IMG/VR virus record: IMGVR_UViG_3300027969_000045
From: a virus
DNA: 64,000 nucleotides
Strand: one strand, 5' to 3'
Below, in pieces: positions 27 to 16,470 of the stretch. The notes under the pieces are model-generated. The model worked only from the letters and a program-made list of their open reading frames with translations. It was not told where the DNA came from and made no database searches. The stretch's first letter is position 1. Every line of letters begins with the position of its first letter. The position numbers and the translations under genes are program-made.

Positions 27-86
27 TGTGCCACTTCTTCTGGTGGCACACTACCCATTGCCTGACGGTCCAATCCGTGTTATGAT
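27..86 (+). promoter_or_regulatory. Palindrome-promoter cassette 1 (TGTGCCA-N10-TGGCACA + sigma70 promoter)
   Basis: TGTGCCA 27-33, TGGCACA 44-50, TTGCCT 58-63, 17-nt spacer, TGn-TATGAT 81-86. Confidence 0.85.
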
Positions 87-116
87 GACTACATCAACAG
101 TTAAAGAGGTGACACA

Positions 117-254
117 ATGATTGAAACTTCTCTCGTGCTTCACGAAGACCTTGAGTTCTTTGCTCATTATCTTGGTGTAGATTATGAAGACTATTATGAA
201 CTTTATCTTGGCATCGTTCAAGATGAAGAAGATGAAAGTCTAGTTGCTGTTTGA
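117..254 (+). CDS. Small acidic early protein (45 aa, ends SLVAV)
   Basis: Hand-translated MIETSLVLHEDLEFFAHYLGVDYEDYYELYLGIVQDEEDESLVAV; GAGG RBS; directly downstream of the promoter. Confidence 0.75.
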   Translation: MIETSLVLHEDLEFFAHYLGVDYEDYYELYLGIVQDEEDESLVAV

Positions 255-314
255 TGATTATAGTCCTGGGATGACTCAAAAAGCACCAAAACCCTTCACT
301 TTACTTTTTATATA

Positions 315-548
315 ATGACTGCTCCTGCTTCTTTGATTGCTCTTGCTGCTGAACTCGTGGATACGAATCCTGCTGCTTCTCAACTGATTGTGAATCTTGG
401 TAATGCTGAAACTGGTGATGAAGTGCTTGAAGCACTGAATACCTATGATGAATCCATTCTTGATTCTCTGGAATCTGTTGATGAAGATGAAGATGAAGAT
501 GAGACTGATGAAGTTGAAGTTGATGAAACTGAACTCGTTGCTGTCTGA
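315..548 (+). CDS. Highly acidic hypothetical protein (77 aa, ends ELVAV)
   Basis: ORF track; D/E-rich C-terminal half; followed by a terminator. Confidence 0.8.
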   Translation: MTAPASLIALAAELVDTNPAASQLIVNLGNAETGDEVLEALNTYDESILDSLESVDEDEDEDETDEVEVDETELVAV

Positions 549-560
549 TAAGTAATATCA

Positions 561-586
561 GGGAGAGAGAAATCTCTTCCTTTCTT
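561..586 (+). terminator. Probable intrinsic terminator
   Basis: GGGAGAGA-GAAA-TCTCTTCC followed by TTTCTT. Confidence 0.65.
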
Positions 587-660
587 GTCTCAGTAACTCA
601 GTGGATCAGAGTATCCGGTTTCTACCCGGTTAGTCGGGGGTTCGAATCCCTCCTGAGACG
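587..660 (+). tRNA. tRNA-Arg(UCU)
   Basis: Acceptor GTCTCAG/CTGAGAC; anticodon loop TT-TCT-AC; T-arm GGGGG-TTCGAAT-CCCTC; no encoded CCA. Confidence 0.92.
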
Positions 661-683
661 TTATACAAATACCCCTCAAGACA

Positions 684-1454
684 ATGAAACTGAAAATTTT
701 ATCGGACCTTCACCTTGAGCACTATTGTGCTGGACAATACTTTGACCCAGGAGAAGGTGATGTTTTAGTTCTTGCTGGTGATATTCTTTGTGCCAAGCAC
801 TTGAAGAAGAATGGTTATCTTGCCGAAGTGTATGAAAAGTTCCTGACTGATTGTAGCAAGAACTATCAAAAGGTTCTCTATGTGAAAGGAAATCACGAGG
901 CATATGGATATAATTACGAAGGAACACACAAAACCATTGAGGAGCATCTTCCTGATAACTTTCAGTTGATGGAGAATGATACAGTCAAAATTGGTGATTG
1001 GAACTTCATTGGATTTACATTCTGGACTGATTTTCGTAATGAGAATCCATTGGAAATGATGTATGCTCAACAGTATATGAATGATTACAAAGTCATTCGC
1101 ATTACTTCCAATTTCCGTAAGTTGAATACAAATGATACTCTTGGTTTTCATAAGAAGAGCAAGGAGTATCTTCTCAATCAACTTCAAGAATTAAATGAGA
1201 ATGTATTCGTCATTAGTCATATGGCACCGAGTTATCAATCGGTTGCTCCTCAATTCAAGAACACAGAAAATGGTGCTTTTGTAAGTGATTTGGATGATTT
1301 GATTTTAAGTTATCCTCAAATCAAATACTGGATTCATGGTCATGTCCATTCGTATTTTAACTATAATATTGGGGGATGTAAAATTCTATGTAATCCTGGT
1401 GGTTATCCTGGTCAAGACACAGGATTTAATCCAAATCTGGAAATTGAGATTTAG
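684..1454 (+). CDS. Calcineurin-like metallophosphoesterase
   Basis: Motifs SDLH, AGDI, GNHE, SH, HGHVH. Confidence 0.92.
   Translation: MKLKILSDLHLEHYCAGQYFDPGEGDVLVLAGDILCAKHLKKNGYLAEVYEKFLTDCSKNYQKVLYVKGNHEAYGYNYEGTHKTIEEHLPDNFQLMENDTVKIGDWNFIGFTFWTDFRNENPLEMMYAQQYMNDYKVIRITSNFRKLNTNDTLGFHKKSKEYLLNQLQELNENVFVISHMAPSYQSVAPQFKNTENGAFVSDLDDLILSYPQIKYWIHGHVHSYFNYNIGGCKILCNPGGYPGQDTGFNPNLEIEI
1389..1436 (+). repeat. 48-bp direct repeat, copy 1 (copy 2 at 2234-2281)
   Basis: TGTAATCCTGGTGGTTATCCTGGTCAAGACACAGGATTTAATCCAAAT is identical at both sites. Confidence 0.95.
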
Positions 1455-2142
1455 ATTTTTTAATTCTTCCCTTTTTATAGGAAGAATCTGGTGGCAATAA
1501 TGACATACACTCTATTGTGCCATTATTCCACCAGCAAGTTCCTTTATTTTTAAATCTCCCATTTCCCCCAGCAAAACATTTTGTCTTCAATCTTCCTTTG
1601 ATATATCCATCCGGAATTTTATCAAAATCAACCATAAATTCTTCAATTTGATTATTAACCCAAATTCTTCCTTTTTGTCTATCTGCCCCAACTTTTGCTC
1701 CTATATTATTATATTTTAATCTTCCTCTAACATAGGTTTCATCTGGTGAATTTGGAGAAAAAGTTTGAACTTTTCCATTATTCCACCATTTACTATTTCT
1801 TCCATTCTCAACCATTTTATGAAATGATTTAATATACCCTTCCGTTTTACTTGTATCACCACCATCCAAGGATTCTATTTTTAAATTTGCCCATTCTTTT
1901 GATTCTACTATATTATTTTCATTGCTGAATGTTATAGCATCTTTTAGGCATTTTTCTTTATCATAATAAACATCCAAAATCTCTGTGCTTATATCATTTC
2001 CGTATTTTTTCAAATGCCTTCTCCACACTTTTCCCGAACCAAGATATGAATATGGATTTTCTCTTATTGTTTTTCCAAAATATTTTAATCCAGTTTTATT
2101 GTGAGTTTTCACATAAAGATATATTGGTTTATTGCTTGACAT
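1426..2142 (-). CDS. Free-standing GIY-YIG-like (Seg-type) homing endonuclease
   Basis: N-terminal IYLYVKTHNKTGLKYFGKT...YLGSG; three W(W/V)NN(G)...Y.(R/K)GR repeats; own late promoter; the only convincing minus-strand gene in the region. Confidence 0.75.
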   Translation of the reverse strand: MSSNKPIYLYVKTHNKTGLKYFGKTIRENPYSYLGSGKVWRRHLKKYGNDISTEILDVYYDKEKCLKDAITFSNENNIVESKEWANLKIESLDGGDTSKTEGYIKSFHKMVENGRNSKWWNNGKVQTFSPNSPDETYVRGRLKYNNIGAKVGADRQKGRIWVNNQIEEFMVDFDKIPDGYIKGRLKTKCFAGGNGRFKNKGTCWWNNGTIECMSLLPPDSSYKKGRIKKSKSQFPDLD

Positions 2143-2166
2143 TTTGATTTGTATGAAATATAATAC

Positions 2167-2174
2167 TATTTATA
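2167..2174 (-). promoter_or_regulatory. T4-type late promoter for the endonuclease
   Basis: TATTTATA = TATAAATA on the minus strand, 24 nt before the ATG. Confidence 0.75.
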
Positions 2175-2176
2175 AA

Positions 2177-2299
2177 ACACACGGTCACACTCACAACTTC
2201 TTTGATTATAAAATTGGAGATTGCCGAGTGATTTGTAATCCTGGTGGTTATCCTGGTCAAGACACAGGATTTAATCCAAATTTGATTTTGGGCATCTAG
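2177..2299 (+). pseudogene. Orphan 3' end of a metallophosphoesterase gene
   Basis: Translates THGHTHNFFDYKIGDCRVICNPGGYPGQDTGFNPNLILGI*, homologous to the C-terminus of 684-1454; no start codon. Confidence 0.9.
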
Positions 2300-2348
2300 A
2301 TATAATGGGAATACTTATTCTCAATTACAAACATTACTAAAAAGGTCG

Positions 2349-2825
2349 ATGGATTACTTAAAGATTGAAAGTGGTTCTCAAGTTCTGCTACTTAACGCAG
2401 ACTACAACCCAATTAACATTTGCTCATACCGTAAGGCAGTTATTCTTTCACTGAAAAACAAAGTTCAGGTTCTATCCAAGAGAGTAATTAGACTGATAAA
2501 CTATGTGCGTCTTCCATTTTCACGTTTAATGAGCACAGCACCCACACGCAATCTCATTATGAAACGTGATGGATATATCTGTTCTTATTGTGGAGCAAAG
2601 GAACAATTAACGATTGACCACATTCTACCTACATCCAAAGGTGGGCAGAATACTTGGGAGAATATGACTACTTGTTGCTTGAAGTGCAATTCCAAGAAAG
2701 GGGATAAACTACTGAAAGAAACAAATATGATTCTTCATAATCCTCCAACTATTCCTTTTAGTAAGATTTCACTCACTGTCCGTCAAAGTAAAAATTTGGA
2801 ATGGACGCAGTATGATTATACTTAA
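2349..2825 (+). CDS. HNH endonuclease (McrA-like family with N-terminal VLLLNADY motif)
   Basis: RDGYICSYCG...LTIDHILPTSKGGQNTWENMTTCCLKCNSKKG. Confidence 0.9.
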   Translation: MDYLKIESGSQVLLLNADYNPINICSYRKAVILSLKNKVQVLSKRVIRLINYVRLPFSRLMSTAPTRNLIMKRDGYICSYCGAKEQLTIDHILPTSKGGQNTWENMTTCCLKCNSKKGDKLLKETNMILHNPPTIPFSKISLTVRQSKNLEWTQYDYT

Positions 2826-2919
2826 TATAAATAATAGTGCCTTGATTGGCTGACACTTTTTAGGGTAGAGAGGAGGCAGAAATGCCTCTTTTCTTGTATA
2901 AATACCTATGTCAGCCAAT
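2826..2919 (+). ncRNA. Candidate two-hairpin antisense sRNA/leader between tandem late promoters
   Basis: TATAAATA 2826-2833; stem TGCCTTGA/TTAGGGTA with loop TTGGCTGACAC; GAAA-capped terminator-like stem 2868-2893; TATAAATA 2897-2904; TGTCAGCCAAT 2909-2919 is the reverse complement of 2845-2855. Confidence 0.55.
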
Positions 2920-2931
2920 TTAAGAGTAGAA

Positions 2932-3747
2932 ATGATTTACTACACTTACGCATATTTGCGTGAAGATAAGACACCTTATTACATAGGCAAAGGAAAAGGT
3001 AATAGGGCATATAGAAGAAGCAAAACAGATATTAAACCACCAAAGGATAAATCAAGAATATTAATACTCAAAAAGAACTTAACAGAAGAAGAAGCATTTA
3101 AGCACGAAATCTATATGATTGCGGTGTTTGGCAGAAAAGATTTAGGAACTGGTATTCTTCATAATAAAACTAATGGGGGTGATGGGTTTTCTGGATTTGT
3201 TCCAAGTGAAGAAACCAGAAAAAAATTGAGTGAGGCAAATAAAGGAAGAACTTTTTCGCAAGAACATAAAGAAAAATTAAGTATAATAAGAAAAGGCATA
3301 AATCTTTCAGAAGATACTAGAAGAAAGATAGGAGAATCTGGAAGGGGGAGAACACCTTGGAATAAAGGTAAAACTCTTTCCGAGGAAACTAAAAGAAAAA
3401 TAAGTGAAGCACATACAGGAAAATCACTTTCGGAAGAAACTAAAAGAAAAATAAGTGAAATGAATAAAGGTAGAAGCAAACCTCCTCTTTCGGAAGATAC
3501 TAGAAGAAAAATAAGTGAGGCAAATAAAGGAAGAAAATATACAATCATCAACAAACCACAATACGAAATAACTTTTAATAATAATGAAAAAATCATTATA
3601 TATGGAAAATTAGAATGGTGCTTACATAATGGATACAATTCTTCTAGTTTATATAAAGTCCAAACCAAAAAATGGAAAAAGTATAAAAATATAATTTCTG
3701 TAATTAAACTTGATACTGCTGTGCCACTCGTAACACTGGCACACTAA
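2932..3747 (+). CDS. GIY-YIG-like homing endonuclease with NUMOD3 repeats
   Basis: YYTYAYLRED..PYYIGKG N-terminus; about six (L)SEET(K/R)RKISEA-type repeats; the track start is 2908 but ATG 2932 fits the late promoter better. Confidence 0.85.
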   Translation: MIYYTYAYLREDKTPYYIGKGKGNRAYRRSKTDIKPPKDKSRILILKKNLTEEEAFKHEIYMIAVFGRKDLGTGILHNKTNGGDGFSGFVPSEETRKKLSEANKGRTFSQEHKEKLSIIRKGINLSEDTRRKIGESGRGRTPWNKGKTLSEETKRKISEAHTGKSLSEETKRKISEMNKGRSKPPLSEDTRRKISEANKGRKYTIINKPQYEITFNNNEKIIIYGKLEWCLHNGYNSSSLYKVQTKKWKKYKNIISVIKLDTAVPLVTLAH

Positions 3748-3777
3748 ACGGGCACAGACCCCAAAATGTGGTATTCT
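3720..3777 (+). promoter_or_regulatory. Palindrome-promoter cassette 2
   Basis: TGTGCCA 3720-3726, TGGCACA 3737-3743, TGg-TATTCT 3772-3777. Confidence 0.85.
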
Positions 3778-3833
3778 TAAGGAGTGGAGGGCAAGCAAGC
3801 ACTTCAAGCACTCAAATCCAAACTGAATTTCAA

Positions 3834-4016
3834 ATGACTGACACCACACGATACAAAATTACTTTAGTTGTTGACACTGACATTCATCCTCGCAAATGGA
3901 TTGCCGATGTTATTAACGGCAATCTAAATGAAAAGGAAGAACTTGTAGACTGGGAAACCGAAGAAGTCTCTAATGATTTTGAATTGCTTTCTTCAATTAA
4001 CGACGTTCCTAACTGA
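3834..4016 (+). CDS. Hypothetical protein
   Basis: ORF track; ATG 3834 chosen because it lies downstream of the promoter. Confidence 0.7.
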   Translation: MTDTTRYKITLVVDTDIHPRKWIADVINGNLNEKEELVDWETEEVSNDFELLSSINDVPN

Positions 4017-4018
4017 TT

Positions 4019-4414
4019 ATGACTGAATCCACCAACGAAGTTCTTCATTACACTCAAGTTCTTTGCGAAGTTCTTCGTGAGAACTACAAGCAATATAGTA
4101 TTGACTCTCATCGTCATTACATCACAAAAGGTGAGAATGTAGAGTATCACCAAGAACAAATTGATAAACTCAATGAAGGTCAAGACCTTGCCGAATATAT
4201 CATTGATAAAGGTCGCAAATACTATAAGATTGTATTAAAGAATCACGGACAAAAACACGCACACTTGTTTGTTGATATGAATACTGGGGATTGTTACAAA
4301 CCAGCATCCTACAAGGCACCTGCCAAAGGTATTCGGTATAATCTCCTCAACGATAAATCTCGTGAGGAAATGTATAAGAGAGCAGATTGGAGTGGCGGAT
4401 ATACATACAAATAA
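4019..4414 (+). CDS. Conserved phage hypothetical protein (GRKYYKI...KPAS.KAPAKG.RYNL type)
   Basis: ORF track; motif recalled from myovirus early regions. Confidence 0.8.
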   Translation: MTESTNEVLHYTQVLCEVLRENYKQYSIDSHRHYITKGENVEYHQEQIDKLNEGQDLAEYIIDKGRKYYKIVLKNHGQKHAHLFVDMNTGDCYKPASYKAPAKGIRYNLLNDKSREEMYKRADWSGGYTYK

Positions 4415-4433
4415 CCTTCCCCAATCATTCTGG

Positions 4434-4441
4434 TATAAATA
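4434..4441 (+). promoter_or_regulatory. T4-type late promoter
   Basis: TATAAATA 24 nt before the HNH gene. Confidence 0.75.
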
Positions 4442-4465
4442 GAAATAGTTAGTATCCAATCAACT

Positions 4466-4966
4466 ATGAAACTTATACCAGAATATGAGGCATATAGTGT
4501 CACCGAAGACGGTGTAATTTATTCACACAAAAAACCAGGAGGAAAGGGAAAAGGCAAAATTGTTGATTATTCTTATAAAAGGCAACTAAAACCGCAAACC
4601 AACCACAAAGGATACTTAAATGTTATTTTGGAACAAGGTAGTTTTAATGCTAAAACTATGCTTATTCACAGAGCAGTAGCATTAGCATACATTCCAAATT
4701 CAAATAATTATGACACCATAAATCACATTGACGAAAACAAAACAAACAATCACGTATCAAATCTTGAATGGATGAGTAATGCTGACAACGTAGCATATTC
4801 ACAAGCAAAAACAAGACTAATACAAACACCAGAGGGTGATAAAATAGAAATTACTAATTTATCAAAATGGTGTCGTGAAGTTTTAGGACTAAAATCATCA
4901 GGGAATATGTTAAGGAGTTTGAGAAATCCTAATATGCCCTGTATGGGATATAAATTACTTAAATAA
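4466..4966 (+). CDS. NUMOD4-type HNH homing endonuclease
   Basis: YEAYSVTEDGVIYS N-terminus; IHRAVALAYIPN...INHIDENKTNNHVSNLEWMSNADN. Confidence 0.9.
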   Translation: MKLIPEYEAYSVTEDGVIYSHKKPGGKGKGKIVDYSYKRQLKPQTNHKGYLNVILEQGSFNAKTMLIHRAVALAYIPNSNNYDTINHIDENKTNNHVSNLEWMSNADNVAYSQAKTRLIQTPEGDKIEITNLSKWCREVLGLKSSGNMLRSLRNPNMPCMGYKLLK

Positions 4967-4982
4967 CCTTCTCATATAACTA

Positions 4983-5174
4983 ATGTCAAACATTTCTTTC
5001 ACCAAAGGTCTTGAAGTTTATTATGATGGAATGTATGGCATAGTTGATTTCATCTGCGATCAATATATTACTGTTTGTGTAAGAGTAATGGACCACAAAT
5101 CTATGAATGTTTGTGTATTAGTTTATCCGGACAGATTTAATTTAGTAAAACTAGCAAAAGAATCTCAAAAATGA
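4983..5174 (+). CDS. Hypothetical protein
   Basis: ORF track; in operon. Confidence 0.7.
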   Translation: MSNISFTKGLEVYYDGMYGIVDFICDQYITVCVRVMDHKSMNVCVLVYPDRFNLVKLAKESQK

Positions 5175-5398
5175 CCGAATTCACTCACGATCAAAGTCCT
5201 GTTAAGATGGAATTTACATATGAAGAACATGATTTTCTGAATAGTATTCTAAATCATGCTCAGGAATGTTACGATTTTGCTGTAGACTACGACTATCGTG
5301 ATCTTCCAGAAGATTCCGAGATTCTGAAGAGATACAAAATGCTAGAATCCCTAAGAAATCGTTCAAGGGAACTTTGGTGTGTGAGATTCAGCAAATGA
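5171..5398 (+). CDS. Hypothetical protein
   Basis: ORF track; ATGA overlap with the previous gene. Confidence 0.75.
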   Translation: MTEFTHDQSPVKMEFTYEEHDFLNSILNHAQECYDFAVDYDYRDLPEDSEILKRYKMLESLRNRSRELWCVRFSK

Positions 5399-5484
5399 TT
5401 CCCCCAGCAATCATATTACTCATCATGGGACAGTTATGGGTTCTTGTAGTTTTTATTCTTGCTCTTTCTAATTTTCTAAACTGA
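5395..5484 (+). CDS. Small hydrophobic peptide (29 aa)
   Basis: MIPPAIILLIMGQLWVLVVFILALSNFLN; start and stop overlap both neighbours. Confidence 0.55.
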   Translation: MIPPAIILLIMGQLWVLVVFILALSNFLN

Positions 5485-5825
5485 TGAATAAACTTCTATT
5501 CCTTCTGTTGCTGCTTCCTGCTCCCGTATTTGCCGGACAACCATTCAAGTATCAAACTCCTTGTATTTTAGAATCACAGAATGTTCTAACAGAAGATATT
5601 TGTACGGTAGTTGAAGTTCGTGAAAAAGGTGGAGCACTTAAATCACGGAACATCTATTCAAACAAGTTCTCATTGACAATCAAATCTTATTTCAGCAAGG
5701 AAAAAGGATTTATGACTTGGGATTCATTTAACAAAATAGAATATCCTTGGCAATATAAGATTGACCCACTCAAAGGAAGTCTGGTGATGCCTGGAGTGTA
5801 TCTCAAAGAAGTTTCTTGGGATTAG
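5484..5825 (+). CDS. Putative secreted/periplasmic protein
   Basis: Signal peptide MNKLLFLLLLLPAPVFA. Confidence 0.75.
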   Translation: MNKLLFLLLLLPAPVFAGQPFKYQTPCILESQNVLTEDICTVVEVREKGGALKSRNIYSNKFSLTIKSYFSKEKGFMTWDSFNKIEYPWQYKIDPLKGSLVMPGVYLKEVSWD

Positions 5826-5834
5826 TGATACTGG

Positions 5835-5892
5835 TGTGCCACTTGTAGCACTGGCACACTCAACCGGCACAGACCCCAAAACGTGGTATTCT
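5835..5892 (+). promoter_or_regulatory. Palindrome-promoter cassette 3
   Basis: TGTGCCA 5835-5841, TGGCACA 5852-5858, TATTCT 5887-5892; 5826-5902 matches 3711-3787 at 71 of 77 nt. Confidence 0.85.
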
Positions 5893-5943
5893 TAAGGAGT
5901 GGGAGACAGGTGCCCCCACTTCAAACTTCAACTCAACAAACAA

Positions 5944-6177
5944 ATGATTCTTGACGTTTTTCATTACACTACTTCCCGTTGGGATTGGCAGTCTGGTGAA
6001 GTAAATCAAATGTGGATTCAAGAGATTGAAGAAGCACCTGATGTTTATAGGTACGTTGCCGTTGCTTACAATCCTCGCAAGGATTCAAGTATGGTGATGT
6101 CTAATCCTCGTGGGTATTTTGATACTCTGCAATGGGTTCAAAACTTCTGTGGTTCCTTCTCACTTCTTCCTAACTGA
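5944..6177 (+). CDS. Hypothetical protein
   Basis: ORF track; ATG 5944. Confidence 0.7.
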   Translation: MILDVFHYTTSRWDWQSGEVNQMWIQEIEEAPDVYRYVAVAYNPRKDSSMVMSNPRGYFDTLQWVQNFCGSFSLLPN

Positions 6178-6179
6178 TT

Positions 6180-6338
6180 ATGACTAATCTCATTTCCCGT
6201 ATCTTTGTAAGTGTTGTAATTATTGCTATTGTGTCTCTGTTTCTTCAATTTGCATTTCCATCTCTTACTGATAAACAAGCAATTGTGATTGGAAGTTTGG
6301 TTAATTTTCTTTATGAACCGCTCGTTGAAAACAAATGA
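6180..6338 (+). CDS. Small membrane protein (52 aa)
   Basis: Hand-translated MTNLISRIFVSVVIIAIVSLFLQFAFP...; ATGA overlap with the next gene. Confidence 0.65.
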   Translation: MTNLISRIFVSVVIIAIVSLFLQFAFPSLTDKQAIVIGSLVNFLYEPLVENK

Positions 6339-6670: not shown

Positions 6671-6680
6671 GGACAATTAA

Positions 6681-7052
6681 ATGAGTAAAGATTGGGAAGT
6701 AACTGTAATTACAGACTCTGGATTTTTTAAGAAAGTAAGAGTTGATGATTGTATTACAAGACAAGATGCAGAAGCAACAGCACTAGGTATGACTGGTGGT
6801 AAAAGAGTTGCTATGAGCAATCCAAAGACATATAATGATGAACCAGAATTTGAATCTGATTATTCTTATAGTCAACCTATTCGGCAATCTTCCTACAGTG
6901 GAGGGACGAGTGAATTTGAAATGTATATGGGTTTGATTGGGTCTGTGGGATTTCTTTGTTGGCTTCTTTGGATATTTTCTCCGATTCTTTCTTGTCTTCT
7001 AGCAATAGGTGTTATTTTGTTTGTGATTGGTATTCATCTTAGGTATAAATAA
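6681..7052 (+). CDS. Hypothetical membrane protein
   Basis: ORF track; two C-terminal hydrophobic segments. Confidence 0.75.
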   Translation: MSKDWEVTVITDSGFFKKVRVDDCITRQDAEATALGMTGGKRVAMSNPKTYNDEPEFESDYSYSQPIRQSSYSGGTSEFEMYMGLIGSVGFLCWLLWIFSPILSCLLAIGVILFVIGIHLRYK

Positions 7053-7064
7053 AATACCTTTCTT

Positions 7065-7149
7065 GCTGGAGTTAGCATAGAGGTCGAATGCACCGCACTT
7101 GTAATGCGGCACTTAAAAGTCATCGCAGGTTCAAATCCTGTCTCCAGCT
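7065..7149 (+). tRNA. tRNA-Thr(UGU) with a long variable arm
   Basis: Acceptor GCTGGAG/CTCCAGC; D-stem GCAT/ATGC; anticodon arm CCGCA-CTTGTAA-TGCGG; variable region CACTTAAAAGTCATC; T-arm GCAGG-TTCAAAT-CCTGT. Confidence 0.88.
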
Positions 7150-7164: not shown

Positions 7165-7222
7165 TGTGTCAGTTGTAGCACTGTCCATATAATTCTCACA
7201 GGCACAGAGACCGTGCTATAAT
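7165..7222 (+). promoter_or_regulatory. Palindrome-promoter cassette 4 (degenerate)
   Basis: TGTGTCA-GTTGTAGCAC-TGTCCAT, 28 nt, TGc-TATAAT 7217-7222. Confidence 0.75.
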
Positions 7223-7253
7223 GACTTACAACCAACGTGAATCCCCTTTGTTT

Positions 7254-8682: not shown

Positions 8683-8740
8683 TGTGCCACTTGTAGAGGT
8701 GGCACACTAAACGAGCACAGACCCTAGGACCTGCTATAAT
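8683..8740 (+). promoter_or_regulatory. Palindrome-promoter cassette 5
   Basis: TGTGCCA 8683-8689, TGGCACA 8700-8706, TGc-TATAAT 8735-8740. Confidence 0.88.
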
Positions 8741-8983: not shown

Positions 8984-9042
8984 TGTGCCAGTTGTAGGGG
9001 TGGCACATAACACTCCCAAACGACCATAGGAGCTGCTATAAT
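8984..9042 (+). promoter_or_regulatory. Palindrome-promoter cassette 6
   Basis: TGTGCCA 8984-8990, TGGCACA 9001-9007, TGc-TATAAT 9037-9042. Confidence 0.88.
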
Positions 9043-10028: not shown

Positions 10029-10231
10029 CTCAAATCTCTTTCACATCTGGTGAGTTGCTGGACATTATCTCTGCTCTTCAACTTGTAGAAGAAGGAGTGT
10101 ATGATGATGGAGACCATCAAGGTGCTGCTTATTATCAAAATATGATTCAACAATTTGAACTCATTTCTAATAAACTTCAGGAGTTTGTTCCTGAAGATCG
10201 TGTTGCCAATCTTGTTCTTGCTGTAAATTGA
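10025..10231 (+). CDS. Hypothetical protein
   Basis: ORF track. Confidence 0.72.
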   Translation: MTQISFTSGELLDIISALQLVEEGVYDDGDHQGAAYYQNMIQQFELISNKLQEFVPEDRVANLVLAVN

Positions 10232-10232
10232 A

Positions 10233-10643
10233 ATGTTGAAAACTAAAATGAATCCCGAAGTTAAGCAGAAGTGGATTGATGCTCTGCGTTCTGATAAGTA
10301 TGAGCAGGGCAGTGAGAAACTCCGCAGTGTGATTGGTTATTGTTGTCTTGGTGTTCTGTGTGACCTTTATTCGCAAGAACATAATGTTGAGTGGAAGTTT
10401 AGAGGAAATGAAGAAACCAATCTTCAACCTATGGACTATTGGTATTTTGATGGAGATAGTGAGTTTCTACCTGAATCTGTAATGAATTGGGCAGAACTGA
10501 AAACTCATAATCCTACTCTGCAAGTTGATGTTGAAGATAATGATCATGAAGATGGTTGGTGCTATGAAGATGGAATTTCAGGTATAAATGATTCTGGTTG
10601 TACTTTTTCACGAATTGCGAGTCTTATTGAAGCACATCTATGA
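10233..10643 (+). CDS. Conserved phage protein (W..ALRS..Y.QG...CCLGVLC motif)
   Basis: ORF track; recurrent phage motif; start could be 10248. Confidence 0.8.
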   Translation: MLKTKMNPEVKQKWIDALRSDKYEQGSEKLRSVIGYCCLGVLCDLYSQEHNVEWKFRGNEETNLQPMDYWYFDGDSEFLPESVMNWAELKTHNPTLQVDVEDNDHEDGWCYEDGISGINDSGCTFSRIASLIEAHL

Positions 10644-10661
10644 TTGAGTCTCGTGTTGAGA

Positions 10662-10720
10662 TGTGCCAGTAATCCTTCTGGCACATAACATCCCCAAACC
10701 CCTCCAATCCGTGCTATGAT
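10662..10720 (+). promoter_or_regulatory. Palindrome-promoter cassette 7
   Basis: TGTGCCA 10662-10668, TGGCACA 10679-10685, TGc-TATGAT 10715-10720. Confidence 0.88.
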
Positions 10721-10744
10721 TACGGAGTAATCAAGAGAAAACCA

Positions 10745-11164
10745 ATGTCTGTTCCTTTCACAATGAACTACAAAGAACTTTATTCTCAGGAAACTGTTGA
10801 TAAAATTGAAGAACTGATTGCTGATTCTTATGCTCTGGATGATATTGTAGATTTCATTGCTGAAACTTCGGAAGAATCTTTCCGCAGTTATTATCAAACC
10901 TATGTTGAAACTGGTGAAGAGTATTCTTATGAAGCAGTAGATGCTTTCATTGAAGAGTTTGGTCTTCATTCTTTGGTTGGTGATAACTTTCAAGACTCTT
11001 ATCGGGGTCAATATGATTCCAAAGCAGATTATGCGGAGAGTTATGTAAGTAAATGTTATTCTGTGGAAGTTCCTAGTTTTGTGGAAGTTGATTGGGAAGC
11101 ATCATTTGATAATATGGATGTTGTAATGAGTGATGCTGGTTATGTGTTTGACAATCAATTCTGA
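10745..11164 (+). CDS. ArdA-like acidic antirestriction (DNA-mimic) protein
   Basis: Very acidic; YRGQYDSKADYAE...VPSFVEVDWEA...GYVF resembles the ArdA C-terminal pattern. Confidence 0.6.
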   Translation: MSVPFTMNYKELYSQETVDKIEELIADSYALDDIVDFIAETSEESFRSYYQTYVETGEEYSYEAVDAFIEEFGLHSLVGDNFQDSYRGQYDSKADYAESYVSKCYSVEVPSFVEVDWEASFDNMDVVMSDAGYVFDNQF

Positions 11165-11170
11165 ATCATT

Positions 11171-11434
11171 ATGAAACTTCAATCGCAAGACAATACTTCG
11201 GTGGTTGATTTTTATCCCACCAAGACTTTCACTGGTAATGTATCCAAAGAGTGGTTTCTTAAAACTATCACCTTTCAAGGAAAGACATTATCCAAGCTGA
11301 TGCTCAACCGAATTGAAATGAATCTTGAAGTTCAAACTTATTTGAACAATGATTCAATTCCTTTTGAAGTTGTAGATTTCAATATACTTCCTCAATTTGT
11401 GGAAGATCATTTTGCTGAACCATTTTCTGCCTGA
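11171..11434 (+). CDS. Hypothetical protein
   Basis: ORF track. Confidence 0.72.
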   Translation: MKLQSQDNTSVVDFYPTKTFTGNVSKEWFLKTITFQGKTLSKLMLNRIEMNLEVQTYLNNDSIPFEVVDFNILPQFVEDHFAEPFSA

Positions 11435-11440
11435 ATCATT

Positions 11441-11623
11441 ATGGAAGTCTATGCTGTGATTGGTGGTATCAATTATGAGGGAGAACAATTTTATTCTCTC
11501 AAACTGTTTGATTGTTGGTCTTCTGCTGATGCTTACCGTGAGCATTTGATTGTGAATGATGGTTATGATTACGCAAAAATGGAACTGAGAGAAGTTAATA
11601 TGGAATCGGCAATCAAATTATAG
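11441..11623 (+). CDS. Hypothetical protein
   Basis: ORF track. Confidence 0.72.
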   Translation: MEVYAVIGGINYEGEQFYSLKLFDCWSSADAYREHLIVNDGYDYAKMELREVNMESAIKL

Positions 11624-11627
11624 TCGG

Positions 11628-11686
11628 TGTGCCACTTGTAGGGGTGGCACATAGAATGAGCACAGACCCCTCTGGGGTGCTATACT
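11628..11686 (+). promoter_or_regulatory. Palindrome-promoter cassette 8
   Basis: TGTGCCA 11628-11634, TGGCACA 11645-11651, TGc-TATACT 11681-11686. Confidence 0.88.
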
Positions 11687-11711
11687 GTAAGTATCAAAGG
11701 TTGAGAACCAA

Positions 11712-12386
11712 ATGGACCGCACTCAAGTCATCGCAAAGATTCAGTCTATTCTGAAACTTCAGAATGGAACTTCTTTTGATGGTGAGGCAGATGCTGCTGC
11801 AAAGATGATTGATAAACTTTGCAAGCAGTATGGTGTTACTATCACCGAAGCAACTGAAACTCAAGTATTTGATGAGTCCTTTATCAAATACAAACGTGTA
11901 AATTATGCACTTATCACTCTTCTCAATGCGATTGCAACTTTCTATGATGCAAAAGCATATATGAAGAATGGTGATGAAAAATCACTTCAAATCATTGGTA
12001 GTGATGCACAACAAATTCAAGTGCGTCTCTATTATGATTACCTGGTTCAGGTGATGGAGAAAGAAGCAGAACTTGCACATTCGGCAGAGAAGATTATGGC
12101 TGCTCTGACTGGTAAGAGTGTATCTCGTAGCTTCAAACTTAATTTCCGCAAAGCATTTGCCGATAAAGTAGCACTGCGTTTGTTTGAAATGAAGAAAGAA
12201 GAGAACCGAGTTCACGAAGATAAGAAAGCAGTGAGTGATAAACTTTCTACGATGCGATTTGGAAAATCGCGTAAATTTAATAGTCCTAATGGTTCTGGGG
12301 CAATCTCTGGTTCTAATGTGGGAGCGGGAGTTTCTTTACATAGACAAACAAGTGGTTCAGTTGCTAAACAACTTTGTGGAGTTTAA
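11712..12386 (+). CDS. DUF2786-like domain protein
   Basis: N-terminal KIQSILKL...EADAAAKMIDKLCKQYGV. Confidence 0.75.
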   Translation: MDRTQVIAKIQSILKLQNGTSFDGEADAAAKMIDKLCKQYGVTITEATETQVFDESFIKYKRVNYALITLLNAIATFYDAKAYMKNGDEKSLQIIGSDAQQIQVRLYYDYLVQVMEKEAELAHSAEKIMAALTGKSVSRSFKLNFRKAFADKVALRLFEMKKEENRVHEDKKAVSDKLSTMRFGKSRKFNSPNGSGAISGSNVGAGVSLHRQTSGSVAKQLCGV

Positions 12387-12488
12387 CTAAATATAAATGT
12401 CTGTTGGTACGGCAATACTCTACAGATAAGATTGGGTGCTCTTTTTGGGCACCTTTTCTATTATAAATAGTATTGCCGTACCAATAGA
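12387..12488 (+). ncRNA. Candidate two-hairpin antisense sRNA/leader between tandem late promoters
   Basis: CTAAATATAAAT 12387-12398; stem GTCTGT/ACAGAT enclosing TGGTACGGCAATACTCT; terminator-like GGGTGCTC-TTTTT-GGGCACCT-TTTC; TATAAATA 12462-12469; 12469-12488 is complementary to 12400-12419 (19 Watson-Crick + 1 GU). Confidence 0.6.
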
Positions 12489-12494
12489 ATAAAA

Positions 12495-13232
12495 ATGACT
12501 TCACAAAGTCCAAGAATTTACTTATATAAAATTACCTTTGAAGAAGTTCCATATTACTATTATGGAGTAAAAAAGGAAAAGAAATATAACGAAGAATATT
12601 GGGGTTCTCCATATACAAATAAATGGTGCTGGGAACTTTATACACCAAAGAAACAAATACTTCAACTCTTTGATTATACTGATAAAGGTTGGTTAGAAGC
12701 ACTTGGAGTTGAAAAAAGAGTAATCAAACAATTTTACAATACCGATAAATGGTGCTTGAACGAAAATGTTGGTGGTTTGATGTCATTAGAAATTAACAGG
12801 AAATCTGGGAAAAAATCAGCCAAAACAAATAAAAAACAAAATACTGCTATATTTGGATTAACTAAAAAACAGTTGAAAGAACAAGGAATACTTGGAGGAA
12901 AAAAATCTTATGAATTGGGTGTTGGTATTCACTCGTTAACAACAGAACAAATAAGAGAAAATAGCAAAAAGGGGGGGCAAAAAACAAAAGAACTTGGTAT
13001 TGGTGTTTGTGGATTATCTTTAGAACAAAGAATAGAAATTGGCAGAAAAAACTACAAAAATGGAATAGGTCTTGCTTCTATAACCAAAGAAAAAAGAAAA
13101 GAAATAGTGAAAACAACTAATTCTCAAAGATGGATGTGTCTTGAAACTGGTCATATAACAACATCTGGACCACTTACAAAATATCAAAGAGCAAGAGGAA
13201 TATCTACCTTAAAAAGAGTAAGGTTAGTATAA
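12495..13232 (+). CDS. GIY-YIG-like homing endonuclease
   Basis: IYLYKITF...YYYGVKKE...YWGS; repeated G(V/I)GI..LT.EQ..E..KKGG units; A-rich composition; late promoter. Confidence 0.75.
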   Translation: MTSQSPRIYLYKITFEEVPYYYYGVKKEKKYNEEYWGSPYTNKWCWELYTPKKQILQLFDYTDKGWLEALGVEKRVIKQFYNTDKWCLNENVGGLMSLEINRKSGKKSAKTNKKQNTAIFGLTKKQLKEQGILGGKKSYELGVGIHSLTTEQIRENSKKGGQKTKELGIGVCGLSLEQRIEIGRKNYKNGIGLASITKEKRKEIVKTTNSQRWMCLETGHITTSGPLTKYQRARGISTLKRVRLV

Positions 13233-13260
13233 TCTGTCTCGCACGAGTCCAATGATACGG

Positions 13261-13319
13261 TGTGCCAGTTGTAGCACTGGCACACTATATCCCCAAACCC
13301 CTCCAATCCGTGCTATGAT
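13261..13319 (+). promoter_or_regulatory. Palindrome-promoter cassette 9
   Basis: TGTGCCAGT-TGTAGC-ACTGGCACA 13261-13284, TGc-TATGAT 13314-13319; 13289-13335 is identical to 10690-10736. Confidence 0.88.
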
Positions 13320-13342
13320 TACGGAGTAATCAAGACAAAACG

Positions 13343-13618
13343 ATGAAGTTTCAAGTTACTCAAATTGAGTTTGACTTTGACAACTCTTGCCCGTATTGTG
13401 GTGGGGATTGTTACAACGATCACGACAATGCTTGTGATGGTTTTCTTGGTGATATTGACCATTTAGTTCAACAACAGCAACAAACTATTGATGAAACTAT
13501 CTCCCAAATCTGGGAGGTTGATGATGAAGAGCATCTGGTAGATAAAATTAGTGACGAAACTGGTTGGTGTATCAAGTCCATTCATTATACTGTCTTTATT
13601 CCCGGCGTTTATTCCTAG
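13343..13618 (+). CDS. Hypothetical protein with a CPYC...C...C segment
   Basis: ORF track. Confidence 0.75.
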   Translation: MKFQVTQIEFDFDNSCPYCGGDCYNDHDNACDGFLGDIDHLVQQQQQTIDETISQIWEVDDEEHLVDKISDETGWCIKSIHYTVFIPGVYS

Positions 13619-13650
13619 TCTTACACACAACTAACAAACAACAAAAACCG

Positions 13651-13815
13651 ATGACAACTTTCAATTACACCGTTGCTCTCTATCGTTTTGCTTATGATGT
13701 AGTTGGTATGTCCGAGCAAGACAACATTCGGTATAGTTATGGTGAGTGCCTTGATTGTAACATTGGAATTGATACTTTTTACGATAATGTAAACCGTGCC
13801 TTGTGTGCCGTCTAA
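13651..13815 (+). CDS. Hypothetical protein (54 aa)
   Basis: ORF track frame; ATG 13651 follows an A/C-rich leader. Confidence 0.65.
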   Translation: MTTFNYTVALYRFAYDVVGMSEQDNIRYSYGECLDCNIGIDTFYDNVNRALCAV

Positions 13816-13850
13816 TTCTCTCACATTCATACAAACCAACAAACAAACAA

Positions 13851-14156
13851 ATGTCTTATTCTGAAAAGTACCAGCAACTGGAAAATCAAATTCAAGAACT
13901 TCAAGCAGAAGTTAAAAGATTGAAGCAAGAAGAAACAAATAACAAACTTCCTCGTAACTTTGCGATTGATGTTGTCAAAAAAATCCTTGATGATGGTGAT
14001 ACTAATTACCTTGATGATGCCTTTGAATGGGCTTATACAGAACAAGGATATACTTATTGGAATGACATTCATGATGGCAATGAACCACTTCGTAAGAAAG
14101 ACATCATTCAACTTCAAAAATGGGTGATTATCTATCTGGAACAAAATCAAAAGTAA
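13851..14156 (+). CDS. Hypothetical protein with N-terminal coiled coil and AF.W..T.QG..YW domain
   Basis: ORF track frame; ATG 13851. Confidence 0.75.
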   Translation: MSYSEKYQQLENQIQELQAEVKRLKQEETNNKLPRNFAIDVVKKILDDGDTNYLDDAFEWAYTEQGYTYWNDIHDGNEPLRKKDIIQLQKWVIIYLEQNQK

Positions 14157-14198
14157 ATCATAATTCTTACTCATTCAAAACACATTACAAACAACTTT

Positions 14199-14396
14199 AT
14201 GAACTCTGACAAGCAACGCAATTCTCAAATTGAAGTTTCGGTTGATTATATGAATGACCAAGTTCTTCATCTCATTAACAACGATCAAGCAGAAAATGCG
14301 AAAGCAATTCTTATGGAATGGGAAGAATTGATGACACACGAAGATGGTGATGATTCAGTTACAGTCATTTGGATGAAGAACTTTATTTCAATCTAG
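14199..14396 (+). CDS. Hypothetical protein
   Basis: ORF track. Confidence 0.72.
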   Translation: MNSDKQRNSQIEVSVDYMNDQVLHLINNDQAENAKAILMEWEELMTHEDGDDSVTVIWMKNFISI

Positions 14397-14424
14397 TAGC
14401 ATCTCATTGAGACCAGTGTTGAGA

Positions 14425-14482
14425 TGTGCCACTTGTAGCACTGGCACAGTAAATGAGCACAGACCCCAATCCGTGCTATGAT
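14425..14482 (+). promoter_or_regulatory. Palindrome-promoter cassette 10
   Basis: TGTGCCA 14425-14431, TGGCACA 14442-14448, TGc-TATGAT 14477-14482. Confidence 0.88.
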
Positions 14483-14511
14483 AAAGGGACACAAGCAAAG
14501 AAAAGCACCTG

Positions 14512-14685
14512 ATGACAACTGCACAAAAACTAGAAAAAGCATTTCTTCTAAATGTGTTTGCTCTGGTGAATGAAGTTCAAGGTAAGCACAAACTTCCTTC
14601 GCAGTTTCATTCTAATTACAAATCTTCTTGGGTAAAGCAAAATCATAATCCCAAGCAAAAGAAAGATGCTCTTTCCCGTGTTTGA
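14512..14685 (+). CDS. Small basic protein (57 aa)
   Basis: Hand-translated MTTAQKLEKAFLLNVFALVNEVQGKHKLPSQ...KKDALSRV; first gene after the promoter. Confidence 0.65.
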   Translation: MTTAQKLEKAFLLNVFALVNEVQGKHKLPSQFHSNYKSSWVKQNHNPKQKKDALSRV

Positions 14686-14690
14686 ACTCA

Positions 14691-15095
14691 ATGAGTAAAC
14701 TTCTTGATCAAATTGATCTTTCAACTTGTATTATGGGTCAATTAGTTCAACTTCGCAGTGGTGATTTTGAGTATTACGAATATAAAGATGAGGCAGGTTT
14801 TTATATTGTTGGTGGTGATTATTATAATCAGGATGGAAGTTATTATGTTAAATATACTGAACCCCAGTATGATGTAGTCAAAGTCTTTCCTGCCGAGATT
14901 CCAGTTCCTGATTCATTTAGCGTTCGTTGGTCCAAAGAAGTTCTAAAAGGACGTATTTCTTATCTTGTTGTAGCATTTGATTTTGCTCAAACTCCGCAAG
15001 GAGAACAGTATTGGAGAGATATTTACACTGGTAAAACTAATCTCTCTTTTGGTGATATGATTCTCATTCAGAAGTGGGTCATTCAATCACTCTGA
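14691..15095 (+). CDS. Hypothetical protein; C-terminal domain paralogous to 13851-14156
   Basis: AFDFAQTPQGEQYWRDIY...LIQKWVI. Confidence 0.75.
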   Translation: MSKLLDQIDLSTCIMGQLVQLRSGDFEYYEYKDEAGFYIVGGDYYNQDGSYYVKYTEPQYDVVKVFPAEIPVPDSFSVRWSKEVLKGRISYLVVAFDFAQTPQGEQYWRDIYTGKTNLSFGDMILIQKWVIQSL

Positions 15096-15145
15096 ACGGT
15101 TAGCATACATAAGGGATGCTGATAGGTAGAAGAACCGTAGACCCC

Positions 15146-15174
15146 TTGACAACCACCCCCAAAGGTGCTATGAT
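15146..15174 (+). promoter_or_regulatory. Canonical sigma70 early promoter without the TGTGCCA palindrome
   Basis: TTGACA 15146-15151, 17 nt, TGc-TATGAT 15169-15174. Confidence 0.85.
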
Positions 15175-15198
15175 AAGGGGACAGACAAACAAAGGCAA

Positions 15199-15372
15199 AT
15201 GAGTGAGTTTCAAAAAATCATTCAAGAAGCAAACTTTCAATCAAACTCAAAGAACCAATTTATTCAAGAACTTTTGAAAGATAAAGTGTTCTGTTCATTG
15301 ATGATTGAATCTTGTTTGATTGGATTTGTAGATGGTGTGGTAGAAGCTATATTTCCCGATAAAGATAACTAA
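15199..15372 (+). CDS. Hypothetical protein (57 aa)
   Basis: Hand-translated MSEFQKIIQEANFQ...IFPDKDN; follows the promoter. Confidence 0.6.
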   Translation: MSEFQKIIQEANFQSNSKNQFIQELLKDKVFCSLMIESCLIGFVDGVVEAIFPDKDN

Positions 15373-15406
15373 TCTCTCTCTCACTCACTCACTTAAAACA
15401 CTCTAA

Positions 15407-15535
15407 ATGACAACTCGTTTCACTTACGACATTCAAACTCAACAACTTGTTTATGCTCTTGTTGATAAAGATGGTGTTTGTAAGTATCTAACTACTTCTA
15501 TTGTTGATGCTATTAAACTCACTCAAAAGAACTGA
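15407..15535 (+). CDS. Hypothetical protein (42 aa)
   Basis: Hand-translated MTTRFTYDIQTQQLVYALVDKDGVCKYLTTSIVDAIKLTQKN. Confidence 0.6.
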   Translation: MTTRFTYDIQTQQLVYALVDKDGVCKYLTTSIVDAIKLTQKN

Positions 15536-15536
15536 A

Positions 15537-15752
15537 ATGAAAAACTTTGATCTCTTTCAATTTCTTGTAGTTGTTGGAGTTGTTGTTATTTTTCTAGCAG
15601 CTCCTATTGTCGGTGCGGGTCGGGTGATTGTAACACAACAAGCAATCAATCAAGAATGTAAGACTAATTATTCTTTCATTCAAGTTGCTCTTGCTGGAAA
15701 TAATCTTTCACGCATTTGCCAAATCAAAAATCAAACCATCACCATCAAATAA
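15537..15752 (+). CDS. Small membrane protein
   Basis: ATG 15537; N-terminal TM segment. Confidence 0.7.
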   Translation: MKNFDLFQFLVVVGVVVIFLAAPIVGAGRVIVTQQAINQECKTNYSFIQVALAGNNLSRICQIKNQTITIK

Positions 15753-15757
15753 CTAAA

Positions 15758-15955
15758 ATGATTTTACTTTACAAAGAAGACCAAGGTGTTGTTTTTACTC
15801 TTGATGAGTTCAATGAGTTATTGTACGCTCCTATCTACACTGATGGTTCAATCAATCTGAATGAGTTTGATGTTGTGAAAGATGTGGATGGAAATGATGA
15901 ACTTGAAGAAATTCAAGATGACTTGATTTATATGACTGATTCTCAAGGATTATGA
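15758..15955 (+). CDS. Acidic hypothetical protein
   Basis: ORF track frame; ATG 15758. Confidence 0.7.
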   Translation: MILLYKEDQGVVFTLDEFNELLYAPIYTDGSINLNEFDVVKDVDGNDELEEIQDDLIYMTDSQGL

Positions 15956-16140
15956 TTACTATGCGGGTCACTTCTAACTATGGTTACATTCATACCAAGT
16001 TATTTTATCTTGGATGGAGTCATTGTCAGTCACAAGATGAAGAACAATTTGGTTTTTCTATTGGTAATTTGTATGTTGGAGTGTATAATCATCAATGGTT
16101 TGGTGGTATTTTGAATGAATATGGTGTATTAGATAATTAA
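15952..16140 (+). CDS. Hypothetical protein
   Basis: ORF track; ATGA overlap. Confidence 0.68.
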   Translation: MITMRVTSNYGYIHTKLFYLGWSHCQSQDEEQFGFSIGNLYVGVYNHQWFGGILNEYGVLDN

Positions 16141-16213
16141 ATTAAATGTATTAAAAAACATTATGTGTTGATTTGTTAATGATTTGTTAATTGTATCTTA
16201 ATGTGTGATTGAG

Positions 16214-16356
16214 TTCTTTTATCTGTTAATGCTTGATTGAACCTTCTACTTTATGTGTTGATGAATTCTTTTATCTGTTAATGCTTGATTGAACCTTCTA
16301 CTTTATGTGTTGATGAATTCTTTTATCTGTTAATGCTTGATTGAACCTTCTACTTT
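16214..16356. repeat. 52-bp tandem repeat, about 2.75 copies
   Basis: TTCTTTTATCTGTTAATGCTTGATTGAACCTTCTACTTTATGTGTTGATGAA starting at 16214, 16266 and 16318. Confidence 0.95.
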
Positions 16357-16376
16357 TTATGGGTCTAAGCCAGATA

Positions 16377-16405
16377 ATTATAACACAAACCATCTAAAAA
16401 GTCAA
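16377..16405 (-). promoter_or_regulatory. Leftward near-consensus sigma70 promoter with no downstream ORF
   Basis: Minus strand TTGACT-17 nt-TGt-TATAAT. Confidence 0.75.
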
Positions 16406-16411
16406 GTATTT

Positions 16412-16470
16412 CCAGACACTTGAACAACTGGCACAAGGCATCAACATTATATTCTGGGGTGTGTTATAGT
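16412..16470 (+). promoter_or_regulatory. Half-site palindrome-promoter cassette 11
   Basis: CCAGACA-CTTGAACAAC-TGGCACA 16412-16435, 29 nt, TGt-TATAGT 16465-16470. Confidence 0.65.

Follow-up and report, generated by a model that had tools for sequence, protein, structure and literature searches.

T4-like cyanophages are among the most abundant marine viruses. Doron and colleagues are said to have described, in 2016, a novel regulatory element for the early genes of Syn9 and P-TIM40 that is abundant and conserved among T4-like cyanophages, and we know of no report of a protein that binds it. An open point for these phages is how transcription starts without Alt, Mod, MotA and AsiA; cyanomyoviruses have neither motA nor asiA (PMC2984593). 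Cyanophages borrow the host regulator PhoB via PhoB boxes (PMC10976474), and their genomes contain predicted NtcA promoter sites (PMC3037559). Promoter–stem-loop cassettes (PeSLs), which shuffle gene modules in other T4-like phages, were judged to be sparse in S-PM2 by one study (PMC4503421). Among the cyanobacterial hosts, the GntR-family protein PMM1637 was pulled down with CGRE1, a palindromic 21-22-nt element of yfr2 promoters; a gel shift confirmed the binding, and PMM1637 raised the output of a yfr2 promoter in Escherichia coli (PMC6191309). Here we analyse a stretch of 64,000 nucleotides from the virus record IMGVR_UViG_3300027969_000045 (the window), which carries in its first 16.4 kb a recurrent dyad, TGTGCCA-N10-TGGCACA, placed at a nearly constant distance upstream of a -10 element. 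These units are very probably real promoter cassettes in which the dyad is bound by a protein.

Nine exact copies of the dyad were found, at 27, 3720, 5835, 8683, 8984, 10662, 11628, 13261 and 14425, against 0.10 on average and at most 2 in shuffled sequence. The copy at 7165 has decayed, with 5 of its 14 arm bases changed but with a 10-nt spacer that matches other copies and with the distance to the -10 element kept, and the copy at 16412 is a half-site with a perfect proximal arm and four mismatches, all in the distal arm. The eleven copies are spread over 16.4 kb in front of blocks of small genes, mostly without a family, and the rest of the window beyond 1-16.5 kb holds no copy with fewer than three mismatches. 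The end of the dyad is followed after 28-30 nt by a TAnnnT hexamer in 11/11 copies, always with the TGn extension, whose TG lies 25-27 nt from the dyad; an ATG stands 23-30 nt past the hexamer in eight of them. Each dyad starts 4-29 nt past the preceding stop codon or transfer RNA (tRNA), with the exception of copy 2, which lies inside the last codons of the open reading frame (ORF) 2908-3747. A generic sigma-70 scan detected a -35 element only at copy 1 (TTGCCT, 17-nt spacer) and at a dyad-less promoter at 15146-15174; the scan misses the cassette promoters, and its total count was not above that of shuffles. Two types of sequence recur between dyad and -10, GCACAGRC in five copies and CCCAAACS in three, which together account for eight copies. 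An earlier reading of the same DNA (the original prediction) had listed the palindromes at these eleven positions, their placement at gene boundaries, the spacing of 28-30 nt to an extended -10, the missing -35 except at copy 1, the recurring spacer boxes and a TTGACA promoter at 15146 that lacks the palindrome, and our analysis reproduced all of these. The spacer box GAGCACAGACC was also considered as a third, decayed half-site; it has only GCACAG in common and is present in part of the related phages only, so we did not find this convincing. The cassettes and the dyad-less promoter are as follows.

27..86, plus strand: cassette 1; dyad 27-50, -35-like TTGCCT at 58-63, extended -10 with hexamer 81-86; next ATG at 117 (45-aa ORF).
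3720..3777, plus strand: cassette 2; dyad 3720-3743 in the last codons of the NUMOD3 endonuclease ORF 2908-3747, hexamer 3772-3777; downstream a longer leader, the first ATG at 3834 (60-aa ORF) and then a DUF7717 gene (4019-4414).
5835..5892, plus strand: cassette 3; dyad 5835-5858, hexamer 5887-5892; spacer and leader of the same type as in cassette 2.
7165..7222, plus strand: decayed cassette directly 3' of tRNA-Thr; one mismatch in the distal and four in the proximal arm, hexamer 7217-7222; a helicase gene comes next.
8683..8740, plus strand: cassette 5; dyad 8683-8706, hexamer 8735-8740, ATG 8768.
8984..9042, plus strand: cassette 6; dyad 8984-9007, hexamer 9037-9042, ATG 9067; seven small ORFs behind it, to 10643.
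10662..10720, plus strand: cassette 7; dyad 10662-10685, hexamer 10715-10720, ATG 10745.
11628..11686, plus strand: cassette 8; dyad 11628-11651, hexamer 11681-11686, ATG 11712 (DUF2786 protein).
13261..13319, plus strand: cassette 9; dyad 13261-13284, hexamer 13314-13319, ATG 13343.
14425..14482, plus strand: cassette 10; dyad 14425-14448, hexamer 14477-14482, ATG 14512.
15146..15174, plus strand: dyad-less host-type promoter; TTGACA, 17-nt spacer, TG-extended TATGAT.
16412..16470, plus strand: half cassette; only the proximal arm intact (16426-16435, including the AA-S extension), hexamer 16465-16470.

The window can be assigned to an uncultured T4-like cyanophage (cyanomyovirus) because of its T4-type virion genes, the identities of its Gp23 and the lack of any isolate close to it in DNA. 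Its right two-thirds encode a baseplate wedge, a head closure protein, the large terminase, the sheath, the Gp20 portal and the Gp23 capsid protein, and this Gp23 shares 77-79.5% identity with the Gp23 proteins of myoviruses that infect Synechococcus and Prochlorococcus (e.g. S-SSM7 and P-SSM2). Megablast of the early region against isolate phages returned no close relative; the sole match, of ~266 nt at 80.8% identity, falls inside the NUMOD3 endonuclease gene and is shared with the freshwater Synechococcus phage S-SRM01.

The original prediction had suggested searching for the motif in related cyanophages, and the dyad indeed recurs in cyanomyoviruses. The exact pattern is present in at least 120 IMG/VR stretches, many of them with several copies. 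Allowing one mismatch, it is clustered in all five cyanomyovirus isolates searched (Syn9, S-PM2, P-SSM2, S-SSM7 and S-SRM01), with 0 matches for the reversed control. When a -10 was demanded and three mismatches at most were tolerated, there were 12 plus-strand sites in S-SSM7, about 10 in P-SSM2, 7 in S-SRM01 and 3 in Syn9, and the distance from dyad to -10 is exactly 29 nt in each of the 12 plus-strand sites of S-SSM7. Dyad sites of Syn9 lie at 48558, 51000 and 52996. Among the control phages, T4, RB49, the cyanopodovirus P-SSP7 and the SAR11 T4-like phage HTVC008M gave 0 dyad matches each, and KVP40 gave 1. From this clustering in cyanomyoviruses and near-absence in the five controls, the unit of dyad and -10 can be taken as a family trait of cyanobacterial T4-like phages. 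The dedicated regulon of the original prediction, if meant as private to this phage, is therefore not upheld.

The pooled consensus of the related sites reads TGTGCCAGTT-N4-AACTGGCACA, then 29 nt, then TAnnAT, and the distance from dyad to -10 is 29-30 nt in 503 of 687 sites. The parts in between are less uniform: a -35-like hexamer (at least 4/6 matches) occurs in the spacer of 32% of the sites in related phages, and the TG extension in only 30%. On this comparison the dyad is the constant part, and the lineage of the window carries a '-35-less, extended -10' version of the promoter. Another cyanophage lineage (L007, L010, L025, L038 and others) has a -35-like TTGCAA in the spacer, inside a G5-6...C5-6 inverted repeat, a repeat that recalls the GGGG...CCCC stem-loops of the RB49 PeSLs.

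We propose that each cassette of ~110 nt would be built from the 24-bp two-fold site TGTGCCAGTT-N4-AACTGGCACA at about -64 to -41 (assuming a transcription start 7 nt past the hexamer), a variable spacer of 28-30 nt, the -10 hexamer, TGn-extended in the window, and a short leader with a ribosome-binding site before the first gene of a block of one to seven small genes. A dimeric or higher-order protein, bound at the dyad and always on the same side of the helix, would recruit the host RNA polymerase to this -35-less promoter, and initiation would then depend on an activator. Activation is suggested because the centre of the dyad lies near -53 and the -35 is missing, and early timing because ORFan and anti-defence genes of the hyperplastic region stand behind the cassettes, with indirect support from the late promoter boxes (TATAAATA) present elsewhere; the cassettes would most likely be the early promoters of T4-like cyanophages. 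Of the proposed dimeric activator site replacing the -35, the two-fold site, its fixed phase and the missing -35 in the window were borne out, and activation is a step that we infer. The candidate binder would be the host GntR-family regulator PlmA (PMM1637 in Prochlorococcus MED4), and the repeated cassettes may also act as homology patches for the gain, loss and movement of gene modules, as PeSLs do elsewhere. Taken as a whole, this picture of activator-read early promoter cassettes that double as shuffling patches, with PlmA as the best candidate, is the explanation we moderately favour.

The original prediction did not recognise the motif, whose half-site coincides with that of CGRE1, the site of the host protein PlmA (PMC6191309). 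A search with Rfam Cyano-1 identified genes of the Yfr2 family in 44 of 45 picocyanobacterial genomes (Cyano-2, tried as the Yfr2 family, was rejected; Cyano-1 is that family), and we derived the host form of CGRE1 from the DNA upstream of these genes. The arrangement CAACTGKCAC-N1-GTGMCAGTTG is present in many of the upstream regions; in others there is only one half, and in one the halves form a direct repeat. The density of half-sites was 6.5 per kb in the 110 nt upstream of Yfr2 genes, compared to 0.098 per kb in 82 kb of flanks, and the half-site was found in 17 of 42 Yfr2-family promoters. The host consensus, (A/T)GTG(C/A)CAGTT(G), equals the 10-nt half-site of the phages, with the C/A wobble at the same position. 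The direct repeat, GTGACAGTT-AT-GTGCCAGTT, consists of two PlmA-type half-sites in the Yfr2 promoter of host genome G043 (L245), and hosts thus also differ in how their half-sites are arranged. One GntR-domain ORF was found in each of five host genomes, an open frame of 331-343 aa (the called ORF in L261 has 328 aa) without a named C-terminal family, which fits the PlmA subfamily. A site of the CRP/NtcA type (TGTGA-N6-TCACA or GTA-N8-TAC) was excluded as an identity for the dyad, in which 10 nt separate the arms and GCCA stands in place of GA. In the literature searched, we found no description of the dyad and no connection of PlmA or CGRE1 with cyanophages.

A number of observations weigh against PlmA as the reader. 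CGRE1 has inverted half-sites at a distance of ~8 bp, the phage dyad everted ones at a distance of ~15 bp, and a rigid GntR dimer should not fit both arrangements. The window contains no inverted site of the host type, in which CAAC and GTTG are separated by 13-14 nt and the whole spans 21-22 nt. CGRE1 starts at -55 to -57, and its centre lies near -46 by the published numbers (PMC6191309), compared to about -64 to -41 and a centre near -53 for the phage dyad, although host positions vary among promoters. An identical register of host and phage half-sites, which we considered, is true under only one of two host -10 assignments and conflicts with the published start positions (PMC6191309), and it was discarded. 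A promoter with half a CGRE1 (yfr5) was not shifted in vitro (PMC6191309). The candidate hosts, in which the original prediction had also suggested looking for the dyad, showed no enrichment: there was no excess over the reversed control in five Synechococcus genomes, and five Prochlorococcus-like genomes had 0-2 matches against 0-1 in the control, a non-significant difference. No RNA gene lay close to the four host sites that resemble the dyad by chance. With no enrichment in these ten genomes, no host promoter shows that the phage arrangement works. As for the promoter reading as a whole, the start sites, the early timing and the activation in the window phage are predictions from its DNA.

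Because of the everted order, the spacing, the lack of host enrichment, the unshifted half CGRE1 and the displaced centre, PlmA is put forward as a specific and testable candidate, not as a conclusion, and we name it as the binder of the phage dyad only tentatively. Slightly more tentative is the complete proposal, in which PlmA, the sole GntR regulator that is universal and exclusive to cyanobacteria, would fire the whole early class through an everted yfr2-type site while the cassettes double as homology linkers.

The same discrepancies, namely the different order and spacing of the half-sites, an arrangement seen in no host promoter and a half CGRE1 that is not bound, would be expected if the dyad were read by a protein other than PlmA, be it a different factor of the host or a protein of the phage, brought in by the virion or synthesised very early, that happens to prefer a half-site overlapping that of CGRE1. 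Such a reader could be an activator, or a repressor that later shuts the early promoters off. This alternative would leave the common 10-nt half-site with its C/A wobble as a coincidence of preference, and no GntR-domain ORF was found in the five cyanomyovirus isolates. An activator made by the phage would be unable to start the first round of transcription unless it were packaged. Moreover, the SAR11 T4-like phage, which is listed in the same family (Kyanoviridae, NCBI taxonomy), has no dyad, and this fits a host factor specific to cyanobacteria. We therefore consider a reader other than PlmA rather unlikely, though clearly possible.

Whichever protein reads it, the dyad could in principle act as a hairpin in RNA or DNA, i.e. 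as a PeSL-type terminator or attenuator, a 3'-end stabiliser or a processing site that merely abuts the next promoter. The dyads sit directly past stop codons, their RNA folds at -9 to -19 kcal/mol (z < -4 in 5/9 copies), and PeSLs do pair a stem-loop with a promoter (PMC2839356, PMC4122927). We looked for covariation between the arms in 595 oriented, unique dyad sites from across the family. Watson-Crick counts at every arm pair matched the expectation under independence (for pair 5:20, 395 observed against 399.9), except that pair 8:17 was anti-correlated, with 191 observed against 260.7 expected. The most frequent change is C to A at position 5, which affects one arm only in 230 sites and both arms in 19, against ~23 by chance; one-sided changes that break pairing are thus common, and compensatory variation was not seen. 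It is the arm sequence itself that is conserved across very different phages, with the four central bases free, and the promoter-proximal arm is better conserved than the distal one. No U tract follows the dyads of the window, an Rfam scan of positions 1-17 kb returned two tRNAs only and no family matching the dyad, and a terminator would need no fixed distance to a -10. A hairpin function is accordingly very improbable. Since the arms vary independently, the arm sequence is conserved around a free centre and the phasing to the -10 is strict, the dyad is best described as a site for a sequence-specific DNA-binding protein and not as a selected hairpin.

We also asked how the cassettes relate to gene order. 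Homologues of the window proteins are scattered over many contigs, and their order changes from one to another. In one relative (L075, IMGVR_UViG_3300032286_000510), homology to the window runs through the gene 11441-11623 and the dyad 11628-11651, and resumes at the dyad 13261; between these points lies the following module.

11652..13260, plus strand: two-gene module; ORFs 11712-12386 and 12495-13232 with the flanking parts of cassettes 8 and 9; absent from L075.

A three-way alignment revealed a single cassette in L075, whose left part, including the spacer of the dyad, corresponds to cassette 8, and whose right part, starting immediately past the dyad, corresponds to cassette 9. A 1.6-kb module between two dyads in the window against a single chimeric cassette in L075 is, on this alignment, an indel of the PeSL type. 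The first gene of the cassette 10 module stands at another place in the relatives L075 and L116. Of the 72 homology endpoints counted across all relatives, 8 are no more than 15 bp from a dyad, against an expectation of 3.1% (p = 0.0017). Most endpoints, on the other hand, are at ordinary gene boundaries and not at cassettes, which tells against a general role of the cassettes in shuffling. Since endpoints are enriched at dyads yet mostly fall at plain gene boundaries, the cassettes are one shuffling route, not the sole one. The partition of the early region into modules, as originally predicted, thus stands in that cassettes head modules and at least one module boundary falls exactly in a dyad, but not for the majority of breakpoints. 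The analogy to PeSLs that the original prediction had drawn likewise holds for shuffling, because the module boundary in relation to L075 falls exactly in the dyad, and does not extend to the terminator stem-loop, pairing being unselected and a U tract lacking. That the dyad is mainly a recombination site, used by a phage recombinase or endonuclease in an integron-like movement of cassettes, with the promoter secondary, would suit the chimeric junction at the dyad, the displaced module in relatives and the three to four homing-endonuclease genes nearby, but it is the least probable of the explanations and hardly credible, given that the strict phasing to the -10 and the constant orientation to genes point to transcription, that homologous recombination over a conserved patch of 24 bp or more explains the junction, and that only those 8 of 72 endpoints lie at dyads.

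Several features of the individual cassettes and of the surrounding genes were noted. The two cassettes with a TGGTATTCT -10 (3772-3833 and 5887-5944) have longer leaders of ~52-56 nt that start with TAAGGAGTGGRAG; leaders of this type are conserved in the related contigs L016, L026, L032 and L034, and may represent a structured 5' leader or a small RNA. Cassettes 7 and 9 (10686-10744 and 13285-13342) are near-identical in spacer, -10 and leader, and in both the -10 and the likely start site are overlapped by an inverted repeat, GATTAC-GGA-GTAATC. Cassette 7 is followed first by a gene (10745-11164) that matches an anti-restriction family (phrog_36653, E 2.3e-26) and, weakly, ArdA in Pfam. Behind the decayed cassette at 7165, an in-frame ATG near 7251 would give the helicase gene a leader closer to the usual length than the ATG at 7221 would.

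The first 17 kb of the window form a usual hyperplastic region, with small plus-strand ORFs, two tRNAs and three to four homing-endonuclease-like genes. Three of the latter are on the plus strand (HNH, NUMOD3, and NUMOD4 with HNH_3, at 2349-2825, 2908-3747 and 4466-4966), and a possible fourth is on the minus strand at 1426-2142 (weak match to an HNH PHROG); all four lie within 3.5 kb. T4-type late promoter boxes, TATAAATA, occur in the early region at 2826-2833, 2897-2904, 4434-4441, 7044-7051 and 12462-12469, and further on at 51152, 55986, 57414 and 63697. They stand directly 5' of two homing-endonuclease genes (ATG 2908 and 4466), of tRNA-Thr and of ORF 12495, and also 5' of structural genes. 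Because late boxes directly precede them, the endonucleases appear to be late-expressed passengers amid the early cassettes. In the virion module, two giant ORFs, 21562-33768 (4068 aa) and 35382-42899 (2505 aa), lie between the baseplate wedge and head closure genes.

The array is a further case of a promoter class that has probably been published already, and the worthwhile residue is the agreement with the PlmA half-site together with the clean indel bounded by dyads. The match of the half-site names one host protein that has already been purified, and it can be checked with published reagents and assays (PMC6191309). If PlmA were the reader, the start of infection would be wired to the PII-PipX-PlmA circuit of nitrogen and light stress in the host, which would matter for the course of infection in nutrient-poor oceans, and it would explain how a single early programme serves cyanophages of broad host range in different hosts. 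The chimeric cassette, in turn, extends PeSL-type shuffling, so far described in enterobacterial and Vibrio T4-like phages, to cyanophages.

The closest of the known systems is the early-gene element of Doron and colleagues, which is likewise reported from T4-like cyanophages, before small genes of the early region; the dyad is present in Syn9 as well as in the four other isolates, and judging by the description we consider it likely that the two are the same element.

The PeSLs of RB49/phi1, PST/T4 and nt-1/KVP40 (PMC2839356, PMC4122927) are, like the cassettes, intergenic units of ~100 nt with a palindrome, a promoter, a ribosome-binding site and an ATG. They too are dense in the hyperplastic region before ORFans, and there too a chimeric cassette marks a module indel between relatives (PMC2839356). 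PeSL cassettes are further known to recombine into mini-circles. Unlike the dyad, however, PeSL stems are variable in sequence, G/C-rich and act as terminators, whereas the arms of the cassettes are fixed across the family, show no selection for pairing and are not followed by a U tract. PeSL promoters also have both -35 and -10, whereas in the window the -10 is found in 11/11 cassettes and the -35 only in copy 1. The cassette is therefore seen as a functional cousin of the PeSL, failing on the terminator stem-loop and on the -35.

With CGRE1 (PMC6191309) the phage site shares the 10-nt half-site, the C/A wobble, the palindromic form and a position upstream of the core promoter. It differs in that the host halves are inverted and 1-2 nt apart (21-22 nt in all), whereas those of the phage are everted with 4 nt between the extended halves (24 nt), and the centre of the phage dyad is ~7 bp further upstream. 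T4 middle promoters resemble the cassettes in combining a -10 with an upstream protein site in place of the -35, and in timing a gene class in a T4-like phage; MotA and AsiA are, however, encoded by the phage and the MotA box lies at -30, in contrast to a dyad at about -53 with a reader that is likely to come from the host. Finally, the PhoB boxes and the predicted NtcA sites are, like the dyad on the PlmA reading, host-regulator sites carried in phage promoters, but they serve a few stress-linked genes, whereas the dyad heads a class of 10-20 promoters per genome.

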